Positions 1 to 3,000 of a DNA stretch of 19,849 bases are shown here, piece after piece. This DNA is from a virus. Its lineage: Duplodnaviria > Heunggongvirae > Uroviricota > Caudoviricetes. Made by a program: the position numbers. The stretch's first letter is position 1, and each line of letters starts with the position of its first letter. Location: the IMG/VR virus record IMGVR_UViG_2778261575_000007, positions 1 through 19,849 of that record, one strand, 5' to 3'.

Positions 1-3000
1 GTGAAACTCAATGCCCGTCAAATAGACACTGCCAAGCCAAAAGAGAAGGCTTACAAGCTGGCTGATGGTGGTGGTCTGTATCTCTTGGTAAAACCTAGTG
101 GAGGAAAATATTGGCGCTTCAAGTATCGTGTAGCTGGTAAAGAGAAGCTGTTAGCACTAGGTGTGTATCCTGAAGTTACCTTGGCTGATGCTCGTGCAAA
201 ACGTGAAGAAGCTAAAAGGGGTATCGCTGGGGGTATCGATCCGATGGAAGCGAAACGAGAGGAAAAGATTGCCCGGAAAACGCAGTTAAACAACACCTTC
301 AAAGATATTGCCCTTGAGTGGCACAGCAGCAAATTAAAAAAATGGTCTGCTGGTTATGCTTCAGACATCCTCGAAGCCTTCAATAAAGATGTGTTCCCTT
401 ACATTGGCAAAAAACCAATCGCCGAAATCAAACCACTTGAACTGCTGAATGTGCTGCGGCGCATCGAGGGGCGCGGTGCTACCGAAAAAGCCAAAAAAGT
501 GAGGCAGCGATGCGGGGAAGTTTTCCGCTATGCAATTGTCACTGGACGTGCTGAGTATAACCCTGCACCGGATCTCACCAGCGCGATGCAAGGTCATGAA
601 TCTAATCATTATCCTTTCCTCACAGCCAAAGAATTACCTGATTTTTTCAAGGCATTGTCCAGTTACTCAGGAAGTGCATTGGTTGTTATGGCGGCTCGTC
701 TACTGATTATCACCGGTTTGCGGACTGGCGAACTGCGCGGTGCATTATGGGATGAAATCGATCTCAACAAGGCTATCTGGGAGATACCTGCTTCACGGAT
801 GAAAATGCGTCGCCCTCATGTGGTGCCTTTGTCTAAGCAGGCTCTTTCGCTTATTGGGCAGATTAAAGAATTAACTGGCAATTATCCGCTTATGTTTCCC
901 GGCCGTAATGATCCAAGGAAAACAATGAGCGAGGCTAGCATAAACCAAGTATTTAAACGCATCGGCTATAACGGAAAGGTTACTGGTCATGGATTCCGGC
1001 ACACCATGAGCACCATTTTGCATGAGCAGGGCTATAACACCGCGTGGATAGAGACACAGCTCGCACACGTCGATAAAAACTCAATTCGTGGCACATACAA
1101 CCATGCGCAATATCTGGATGGTCGCCGGGAGATGCTCCAGTGGTATGCCGACTATATGGATTCGCTCGAGCATGGCGGAAATGTGGTGCATGGTGAGTTC
1201 GGAAAATGCGGGTGACTGGTTGAGTATACAGTAGTAGACTTTGAGCACCTAAAAAGGCTGATGCAAACAGAGCTGGCTCGGCCTTAACATTAGACCGCTT
1301 GAAGGGGGAGAATATGCCAATTGTGGAAAACATTCCTGACTTATCCCACTGGCGAACAGTACAGGAGTTTTCTATCACCCAGGCCGCTTTATTGTTGGCC
1401 GGAATTGATCCTTATGATTACCCTACTCTTGAACATGTCAGAGATAATAAACATGAACGTTGGAAAATGGCATGGGGGTTGGCTAATGGAATGGTAACAG
1501 CCATCCGTCGTGGTGTCTTAACTCCTGTTGAATGTACCTCTGAAATAGTTGAGTACGATAATTGGGGAAATGTTTGTGATATTGAGTACAAACGTCTGAC
1601 ATCAGCGCAACTGACCGATCGTGCATATGAGATAAGCAAGGATAAAACTTTAATTAGTCGCCATTCTTTATATGAGTGGATAAAAAATGAGAGCGTTGAT
1701 TTTGCGAGATGCCCTCGCCCTATACCTGTTAAGGAAGTTAATCCGCCAGCAATCATTGAATCATCTCATCAGGTAATTAATCCTGACGAGTATTTGTGTA
1801 CTTATGGGCATAAGAGTGATGGGTTGGAGTATGTGCAGGATGCTATAAGGGAACTATGGTCGACGTATGACCCAGATGACCCACAGACGGCTCCGACAGA
1901 GCATGAGGTACTTGAATATTTGAAAAAAAGGGGGGCGGGTTCTAATGTTGCTAGGGCTGTGAATCTGATTTTAAGGCCTGAACATCTGAAGCGTATTGGT
2001 AGAAGACCAAAAAAAACAAAAAGTTAAATAGTGGTCGCTATTCCAGAAAAATGGTGGTTTCCTTTCAAAAAAAAGTAACCACCAATGCAGATTAAATCGT
2101 AAGAACAGTAATTTTTCTTCGTGTTTCACGTCAGCATGATACTTAAAATAGTAAACGCCATTATTAAAAAAAGGTGGAGCTATTTCACTGAAATGGTATT
2201 CGCCATTCATAATGGTAAGCATCTATAAATATCACTTTTCTTAATGCAAGCTATGTACACCTTTATAGACGTTACAAGGTGAATATATGGCAAACTCTCT
2301 TATTCGTTTAACGGAAGTTCAGCGTAGAACTGGATATAGCAAGGCATGGATTTATCGCCTTATGGGGCAAGGCAAATTTCCTGCATCAGTTAAAATTGGC
2401 TCGCGAGCTATTGCTTTCGTTGAGAGTGAAATTGACGAGTGGATTAATCAGCGTATTGCGGAATCACGTGGAACAGCTACCTGATTAAATGGCTACGGGG
2501 CCAGAAACCCCAGCTATCCACCAGCAAATAAAAGTAACTTAATTCGATAGCAGGAGTTTTTATGAAACTGCGAAAAACGCCCGTACAGGGGCAGGGCTTC
2601 GTTCGGCCTGAAAACCAGAATCTGCAAAATTTCGGCGAAATTATCCCGGTTATTTCCGGCGTTATTGGCGGGCGTGAAACCAATATTGTTAGCGCCAGAG
2701 CGTTGCATAAGGCGTTAGGTGTAGGGCGCGTTTTCCGTTCGTGGATCAAGGGGCGCATTGAAGAATACGGCTTCACGGAAGGCGTGGATTATGAGGTTGT
2801 TGAATATTTGAGCCGACCCGATCCGGTGAGCGCAAAATCTCGCCAGCAAACAGCTCTTGAGTACATCACCACCGTGAACATGGCGAAAGAACTGGCGATG
2901 GTCGAACGTACCGAACAGGGCCGCGCCGTTCGCCAGTACTTTATCAAATGCGAGGAGGAGCTACACAAGGTTGCGCCTGTTCGTTCCGCAGCGTTACGCC

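Follow-up and report, generated by a model that had tools for sequence, protein, structure and literature searches.

The gene between int and alpA of an EcCIMP1-like chromosomal island as a candidate regulator of the alpA promoter

What is the role of a gene that lies between the integrase gene and the regulator gene alpA of a mobile island? The question is raised by a 19,849-nucleotide stretch of DNA catalogued as a virus (IMG/VR record IMGVR_UViG_2778261575_000007, positions 1–19,849; referred to here as the window), in which an open reading frame (ORF) at 1314–2027 on the plus strand, labelled X and encoding 237 amino acids, is flanked by int (1–1215) and alpA (2287–2484). The initial annotation correctly placed this gene next to int, and regarded it as the filling of a variable cargo slot in a P4-type satellite, possibly with a defence function. 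The present computational analysis assigns the element to the phage-inducible chromosomal islands (PICIs) of Gram-negative bacteria and suggests another role: X would be a sequence-specific regulator of the alpA promoter (PalpA), and probably one that represses it, in the manner of an immunity cassette, a reading to which we give about an even chance.

X is a genuine protein-coding gene under purifying selection. The reading frame is intact from the ATG at 1314 to the TAA at 2025–2027 (237 codons and the stop), and a Shine–Dalgarno-like sequence, AAGGGGGAG (1302–1310, plus strand, read from the sequence), lies 3–5 nt ahead of the ATG, in agreement with the ribosome-binding site that had been annotated. 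There are 62 full-length homologues with 40–99% identity in Enterobacterales (Escherichia, Salmonella, Yersinia, Serratia, Erwinia, Dickeya and Pectobacterium), Pseudomonas and Azotobacter, and because the N-terminal sequence MPIVENIPDL is kept across the aligned homologues, the ATG at 1314 is supported as the start. The ratio of nonsynonymous to synonymous substitution rates (dN/dS), calculated against four homologues from E. coli and Enterobacter, is 0.19–0.27, with 0.58–0.73 in the interdomain linker. The last codons of X contain a run of eight A residues (2009–2016, plus strand); in strain EC23-1020 (21314–22096 of the locus) one extra A in this run shifts the frame, which exchanges the last four residues and adds 23 to give a 260-residue product. 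The run could be a slippage-prone tract, or the extra A could be a sequencing error in EC23-1020.

That no family could be recognised also holds: X belongs to an uncharacterised protein superfamily with no described family. No significant match was obtained in Pfam, PADLOC, PHROGs or NCBIfam, PADLOC-DB 2.0 returned 0 families at E-values up to 10, a sequence-profile search of the PDB gave chance-level matches only and Foldseek on PDB structures gave nothing, and tblastn against 50,697 phage records found no match. The homologues are all named 'hypothetical protein' in the databases, and none of the 62 has a Pfam domain. A profile search of 1.84 billion cluster representatives yielded 1142 matches at an E-value of ≤1e-3, and ten distant members of the superfamily, compared with Pfam in search of a partner domain, showed nothing above threshold. 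No description of the family was found in the literature; PIMEs and the jumbo-phage-transduced Pseudomonas islands were considered as literature matches and rejected as different elements.

The most constant property of X is its position relative to alpA. In all of the ~60 loci examined, which span E. coli to Pseudomonas and Methylophilaceae and many of which are closely related, alpA is directly preceded, at a distance of 115–260 nt and in the same orientation, by X or a relative that shares one of its domains. A set of 13 loci represents nine genera. In the loci from Pseudomonas, Dickeya, Enterobacter, Serratia, Erwinia, Arsenophonus and Gilliamella and from metagenome-assembled genomes of a Spongiibacteraceae and a Methylophilaceae member, int, X and alpA are all co-oriented, with X ~120–220 nt upstream of the AlpA/HTH_17 gene. 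The order Int–X–AlpA is found in 41 of 41 IMG/VR loci that encode an X relative, distant superfamily members and E. coli alleles likewise adjoin an AlpA/HTH_17 gene on its upstream side, and in some matches an integrase gene of another kind precedes the same X cassette (hits H7–H9).

The AlphaFold2 model of X (mean pLDDT, the predicted local distance difference test score, of 83) suggests two small helix-turn-helix-like domains joined by a linker. The N-domain (residues 1–132; 1314–1709, plus strand) is acidic, with an isoelectric point (pI) of 5.3, and is swapped for unrelated domains in other alleles; its predicted core is a winged helix like those of MerR, Xis and small terminases, with a 20-residue insertion and a long β-hairpin, the fold matches being weak. 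The linker (residues 133–162; 1710–1799, plus strand), for which disorder is predicted (pLDDT of <50 at residues 141–163), is variable in both length and sequence. The C-domain (residues 163–237; 1800–2024, plus strand), the proposed DNA-reading head, is a basic three-helix bundle with a pI of 9.3, carrying the motif W..YDP.D..TAPT...V..YL...GAG.N.A.AVNLILRP followed by an Arg/Lys tail, and the last 17 residues have a pI of 12. In the putative recognition helix of the window protein (positions 209–221), an unusual NVARAV replaces the NMAEAV of the family. The resemblance to the MerR/excisionase HTH_17 class (AlpA, Xis and the N-domains of small terminases) is one of fold only and concerns the N-domain: Pfam gave no MerR/HTH_17 match, and hhalign of the N- or C-domain against the AlpA alignment gave a probability of <1%. 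The N-domain is further set apart from this class by its insertion, long hairpin and acidity, and specificity for the boxes described below appears to follow the C-domain. Pfam gave no HTH_3-type match either, and Pfam and other family scans detected no enzymatic, toxic or membrane domain.

X, its leader and the X–alpA spacer containing the alpA promoter form an exchangeable cassette, delimited at 1248–2265 by DNA alignment with the island of E. coli O104:H4 (L002). An identity of ~98% between the two islands extends to position 1247 (32 nt after the stop codon of int), is lost inside the cassette, where they are unrelated, and resumes from ~2265, about 20 nt ahead of the alpA ATG; the conserved alpA leader with its ribosome-binding site, TAGACGTTACAAGGTGAATAT (2266–2286, plus strand), is shared between type-A and type-B cassettes and is not part of the exchanged stretch. 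A single co-oriented gene of 233–265 amino acids occupies the slot in the X-type and type-B/C islands examined; it is X itself in type A, WP_000565286 or WP_047089632 in type B and WP_016262924 in type C. Type B keeps a divergent copy of the X C-domain and type C keeps an X-like N-domain with a different C-terminus, and both have a coiled-coil linker (coiled-coil/bZIP-like matches). In the superfamily as a whole, the C-domain follows several unrelated N-termini, one protein carries it in duplicate, and it also stands alone in proteins of 64–139 amino acids; a profile search with it in a set of 5.8 billion proteins returned short unnamed proteins only and exposed a stand-alone allele of 76 amino acids. 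In the 5426 complete E. coli genomes, the backbone of int, alpA and antA occurs in 117, many of which carry type B, X itself in 35, and the 76-residue C-domain-only allele, in the same place between int and alpA, in 277. Carriers of X include the strains APEC IMT5155 and DE17.

The spacer between X and alpA, 259 nt long in the window, is the site of palindromic boxes. Type-A spacers contain 3–6 copies of a motif in both orientations, with the consensus GTGCCCACCTAT and the core palindrome GTG-NN-CAC, and a leave-one-out position weight matrix (PWM) found 28 matches in 2.4 kb of spacers versus 29 in 140 kb of surroundings, a 57-fold enrichment, which is 32-fold in IMG/VR loci outside the training of the matrix. 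In Enterobacter, Serratia, Erwinia, Dickeya and the window a promoter-proximal box lies 71–73 nt ahead of the alpA ATG and abuts a −10-like TATATT, TATTTT or TATAAAT, while a second box 23 nt upstream lies over the −35 position. In the window, box O1, ATAGTGGTCGCTAT (2028–2041), directly follows the X stop and is colinear with perfect 14-bp palindromes, ATAGTG-NN-CACTAT, of the E. coli homologues L028 and L030, the boxes of which are colinear with the degenerate window boxes. Box O2, ATAGTAAACGCCAT, lies at 2148–2161; the degenerate box O3, AAGGTGGAGCTAT (2171–2183), is colinear with AATAGTGGGCACTAT of L028; box O4, ATGGTATTCGCCAT (2193–2206), takes the place that AATGGTGGGTAC has in relatives and precedes O5 by 23 nt; and box O5, ATGGTAAGCATCTAT (2212–2226), is promoter-proximal, 72 nt ahead of the alpA ATG. 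O5 overlaps TATAAAT (2224–2230, plus strand), the candidate −10 of PalpA; a consensus scan offers an alternative alpA promoter at 2184–2213, and the same kind of scan found no convincing promoter for X in the 98-nt int–X spacer. An inverted repeat at 2052–2084 (plus strand) has two box-like half-sites, TGGTGGTT and AACCACCA, contains the PWM match GTAACCACCAAT at 2075 and gives a predicted RNA hairpin of −12.9 kcal/mol (z −3.0); it was rejected as a canonical terminator because it has no U-tract. A box-like sequence, ATGGTAACAGCCAT, with one mismatch to the window box pattern, is also found within the X coding region at 1491–1504 and may be due to chance.

Which protein reads the boxes is suggested by comparison of the cassette types, each of which has its own palindrome, found in its own spacer only. 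The type B palindrome, ACCCTNAGGGT, occurs in 2–4 exact copies in its spacer and the type C palindrome, CCGCAATTGCGG, occurs twice, and the 76-residue allele is accompanied by AACGGT-N-ACCGTT or GTGGGTAC cores, GTGGGTAC being enriched in its spacers. The boxes were considered as sites of AlpA and as arm sites of Int, and both assignments were rejected because the two proteins are near-identical while the boxes wholly differ: AlpA of the window differs from that of O104:H4 at residues 2 and 4 alone, outside the helix-turn-helix, which is identical in islands with different boxes, and Int is ~98% identical, with the boxes 2 kb from attL. The box type instead follows the basic C-domain, because proteins of the P0060 type, with a C-domain 71% identical to that of X over 72 residues and an unrelated N-terminus, keep type-A boxes, and the 76-residue allele has related GTGGGTAC cores. 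This tracking is the strongest computational support for the proposal that X binds the boxes through its C-domain.

Such binding would place X at the promoter that starts the island cycle. In related PICIs, AlpA turns on excision and replication, and uncontrolled AlpA expression harms the cell (PMC6092414); the alpA promoter is the point of helper-phage action, and no repressor is known in Gram-negative PICIs (PMC6092414, PMC11773190). In the mechanism that we favour, X would be expressed together with int or just after it, and its C-domain and Arg/Lys tail would contact five or six 14-bp palindromes of the family consensus ATAGTG-NN-CACTAT (core GTG-NN-CAC) arrayed in the spacer, with X probably in a dimeric or higher oligomeric form. 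The putative operator array would begin at the X stop codon and end on the alpA core promoter, where the two promoter-proximal boxes appear to flank and overlap the −35/−10 region. Because the boxes are numerous and cover both the −35 and the −10, repression of alpA is the most likely outcome, by which AlpA, and thus excision and replication of the island, would be kept off in the integrated state; because AlpA triggers these processes and is harmful when unchecked, X would be a gatekeeper. The acidic, exchangeable N-domain, which is absent from the 76-residue allele and replaced in others, may serve oligomerisation or receive an inducing signal, and X, its boxes and PalpA would be inherited and swapped as one block, like a phage immunity region. 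On this reading X would supply the repressor so far lacking for Gram-negative satellites of the EcCIMP1-like type, and its family offers a testable candidate for the silencing of Gram-negative PICIs and the release of alpA. Versions of X are present in several hundred of the complete E. coli genomes and well beyond E. coli, and if the C-domain binds DNA, it would be a new small DNA-binding module with several natural protein–operator pairs.

Two known systems are the nearest functional analogues of the proposed arrangement. Like the Stl/Rpr master repressors of Gram-positive PICIs (SaPIs), the X gene lies beside int and is highly diversified between otherwise similar islands, and X as proposed would silence the promoter that starts the cycle, with a modular build that could couple DNA binding to helper sensing; operator-like arrays specific to the X allele overlap PalpA and would be the counterpart of operators at the promoter that launches the cycle. 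X differs from Stl/Rpr in having no sequence or fold relation to them, in being co-oriented with rather than divergent from its target, in having an activator gene's promoter as this proposed target, and in that some working Gram-negative PICIs are without X. The block shares with lambdoid immunity regions the sharp homology breakpoints around a regulator and its own operators and the occurrence of alternative blocks in near-identical backbones, whereas it encodes an unrelated protein, lacks a divergent cro-like partner and would control a satellite activator rather than a lysis–lysogeny switch. A bolder extension, which we consider doubtful, is that X-type cassettes are the missing gatekeepers of a large class of Gram-negative satellites, with the C-domain as a new DNA-binding head that shuts alpA and the N-domains as receptors for different helper-phage or other signals. 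If this were true, a cassette swap would change which helper wakes the island or which sister island is excluded, that is, heteroimmunity among satellites, carried by an undescribed superfamily of >1000 clusters at 50% identity.

Several points weigh against X as a repressor of PalpA. EcCIMP1 has a 427-nt gap between int and alpA with no X-like ORF and is nevertheless helper-inducible, and in EcCICFT073 alpA appears to come right after int, as the second ORF (PMC6092414); because EcCIMP1 works without it, X would be an optional layer of regulation rather than a component of every PICI switch. The window boxes are degenerate, and only one of them passes the leave-one-out threshold. The naive Poisson P-value of the box enrichment (~5e-39) is inflated because many of the loci are closely related, and the box patterns are partly post hoc: ATRGTRNNYRCYAT has three exact matches in the window, all inside the X–alpA spacer, for a pattern that was set after the sites had been seen. 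The covariation of box and protein could be due to linkage alone, because both travel in one cassette, and the −35 of PalpA is weak and not conserved, which would suit an activator too.

The last point leads to the first of the alternatives, in which X acts on the same boxes as an activator or sensor and turns alpA on, in a MerR-type or class II manner, when a helper signal reaches the N-domain. The weak −35 would fit this, as would the predicted MerR-like core of the N-domain, since MerR regulators bind in the promoter spacer, and the MerR-like head and coiled coil of alleles B and C; alpA is, moreover, known to be helper-induced (PMC11773190, PMC6092414). The five or six boxes, however, spread over ~200 bp from the X stop and covering both the −35 and the −10, resemble a repressor array, the 76-residue allele has no obvious activation or sensor part, and EcCIMP1 induces alpA without X, so that we regard activation as unlikely.

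The same unlikely standing is given to a role of X that has nothing to do with DNA, for example as an adaptor to a helper or host protein, with the boxes read by another factor of the host, the helper or the island. Linkage within the cassette would explain the covariation of box and protein in this case, the N-domain is acidic and its fold matches are weak, and the loop YDP.D..TAPT is very strongly conserved throughout the superfamily, which would suit a conserved protein partner. Against another reader stand the tracking of the box type with the C-domain through three protein architectures, the difference in boxes between islands with the same Int and AlpA, and the strongly basic character of the C-domain and tail of X.

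The proposal of the initial annotation, that X is accessory cargo in an int-side slot, as an uncharacterised anti-phage or helper-interference protein, is in our view improbable. Part of it stands: the int–alpA interval varies among near-identical E. coli islands, and relatives carry defence genes beside int. The rarity of X in E. coli would also suit cargo, as would the superinfection immunity conferred by EcCIMP1. The variable content of the relatives, however, enters upstream of X, while X remains beside alpA, a pairing that is fixed from Enterobacterales to Betaproteobacteria. Between 40 nt and 5 kb separate int from X, and what is added is cargo such as restriction–modification and toxin–antitoxin genes. 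A 1647-residue Type ISP/IIG restriction–modification enzyme is inserted precisely in the interval from int to the X homologue of the Spongiibacteraceae locus (L015, 947–5890), a Type III mod–res pair lies there in Gilliamella bombicola (L017, 1130–5739), two unknown genes in the Dickeya locus, and a YoeB/YefM toxin–antitoxin pair between int and the X relative in the P0110 locus. The Gilliamella X homologue itself is split into two ORFs (5983–6336 and 6337–6696) and for this reason is probably a pseudogene. Judged by these gene orders, a cargo slot beside int exists, and X is its right-hand border and not its filling.

A defence role is likewise disfavoured by the lack of any PADLOC match for X or alleles B and C, by the lack of enzymatic, toxic or membrane domains in X, by the absence of an X homologue from the phage records searched, and by the two predicted helix-turn-helix-like domains and the operator-like palindromes over the alpA promoter. 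X was to count as something other than cargo if it proved to be conserved core content with a known housekeeping role; it is conserved content of the regulatory module of a wide island family, with a role that is inferred here rather than previously known. The hotspot next to int of P4-like satellites, reportedly described by Rousset et al. 2022, resembles this locus in the variable interval beside a P4-family integrase and in the defence systems found there in relatives. It differs in that psu, sid and delta genes were not found in this island, in that X is a fixed neighbour of alpA and not variable cargo, and in that the entry sites of cargo here are the int–X interval and the far right end. 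Defence mining of X-type islands should be directed at these two sites and not at X. In the window, a 532-residue protein encoded at the right-hand cargo end (13255–14853, plus strand), with no Pfam or PADLOC match, is a better candidate than X for unknown defence cargo. The right-hand part of the island also contains a 194-residue ORF (11545–12129, plus strand) with no match in Pfam or PADLOC, and the O104:H4 relative has, downstream of the shared genes and toward the right end, an AAA ATPase and DUF4435 pair, which we take to be PARIS-like.

Very improbable is a recombination directionality or architectural factor that aids Int in excision or integration, since the boxes lie 2 kb from attL and far from attR (~15.6 kb), outside the att arms, alleles B and C have no domain in common and yet are accompanied by identical Int proteins, the same X cassette occurs with a different int, and excision of EcCIMP1, where there is no X-like gene, needs int and alpA (PMC11773190).

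We return to the element for which X is proposed as a regulator of PalpA. Its DNA is 99.4–99.9% identical in six complete E. coli genomes, where it lies right after proA and tRNA-Thr, and proA, tRNA-Thr and int are the annotated order at the left island end. An annotated near-identical island has the gene order int, X, alpA, antA, Icd-like, DUF4222, primase–helicase, ProQ/FinO, PerC and unnamed genes. In the window, int (1–1215, plus strand; Pfam Arm-DNA-bind_3, Phage_int_M and Phage_integrase) encodes a P4-family tyrosine integrase and forms the left end of the island, and alpA (2287–2484, plus strand; Pfam Phage_AlpA/HTH_17) encodes 65 amino acids. The window coordinates were confirmed for the antA antirepressor gene (2562–3362), the DUF4222 gene (5892–6134), the ProQ/FinO gene (9174–9704) and the PerC gene (9701–9988); the primase–helicase of 604 amino acids is encoded at 6131–7945 (Pfam D5_N, DUF5906 and Pox_D5). 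A copy of the tRNA-Thr 3′ end at ~15633–15660 marks attR and the right end of the island, at ~15.65 kb.

The P4-family integrase, the AlpA regulator and the alpha-type primase–helicase, all recognised by Pfam, are common to P4-like satellites and PICIs and hence do not discriminate between them (PMC6092414). No Pfam family match to Psu, Sid or Ogr/Delta was found in the 25 window ORFs scanned, none of the three is annotated in the near-identical island, and no phage structural or lysis families were found among the window ORFs scanned. The layout is that of a Gram-negative PICI, with a tRNA att site, int on the left, a co-oriented alpA, then the primase/replication module, and a size of ~10–16 kb. 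EcCIMP1, a PICI for which experiments have demonstrated induction and transfer by phage Kapi1 and in which alpA is the master activator (PMC11773190), agrees with the window in its proA/tRNA-Thr site, in int, alpA, antA, Icd-like, DUF4222, primase and PerC genes and in a neighbouring MarR/autotransporter islet. It is unlike the window in its int–alpA gap; EcCIMP1_002 is a small ORF unrelated to X, for which its authors found no function (PMC11773190), and its identification with the 76-residue C-domain protein was rejected because the EcCIMP1 gap contains no such ORF. From the missing Psu, Sid and Delta and the shared site, backbone and islet, the window element is a Gram-negative PICI of the EcCIMP1 type and not the P4-type satellite that had been annotated; helper-phage induction, packaging and transfer have been shown for EcCIMP1 and EcCICFT073 only (PMC11773190, PMC6092414).

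A second IMG/VR record, IMGVR_UViG_2737471837_000008 (12.86 kb), has int at 1–1215 and X at 1314–2024 with 100% protein identity; because it carries both genes, X-type islands are evidently catalogued as viral genomes in IMG/VR. An Rfam scan of the whole window gave no match. The mechanically called 512-residue ORF at 3355–4893 (plus strand) is probably no gene, the same stretch of the annotated near-identical island containing a YlcI/YnfO gene on the opposite strand, an Icd-like fragment and short ORFs.

Beyond attR, a second copy of the tRNA-to-int spacer precedes a 112-residue N-terminal integrase remnant (15801–16139) that closely resembles residues 1–112 of int, and together they look like what is left of a tandem island. 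Uropathogenic E. coli, Nissle 1917 and ATCC 25922 commonly have the same remnant, under the annotation Arm DNA-binding domain protein. Just outside the island are a MarR-family regulator gene (16584–17108, minus strand) and a gene for an autotransporter of the SPATE type (serine protease autotransporters of Enterobacteriaceae; 17234–19849, minus strand), with an Autotransporter β-domain and a PIC/HAP1/IgA0 solenoid, which continues beyond the window; this islet, as MarR with Vat, has also been described beside EcCIMP1 (PMC11773190). Within the island, a 178-residue protein (10626–11162, plus strand) has an N-terminal HTH_17-like motif (E-value 1.4e-4, below the Pfam cut-off) and is a candidate second AlpA/MerR-type gene product; in EcCIMP1, too, there is a second gene of the AlpA-like kind, which serves the helper phage as an excisionase (PMC11773190).

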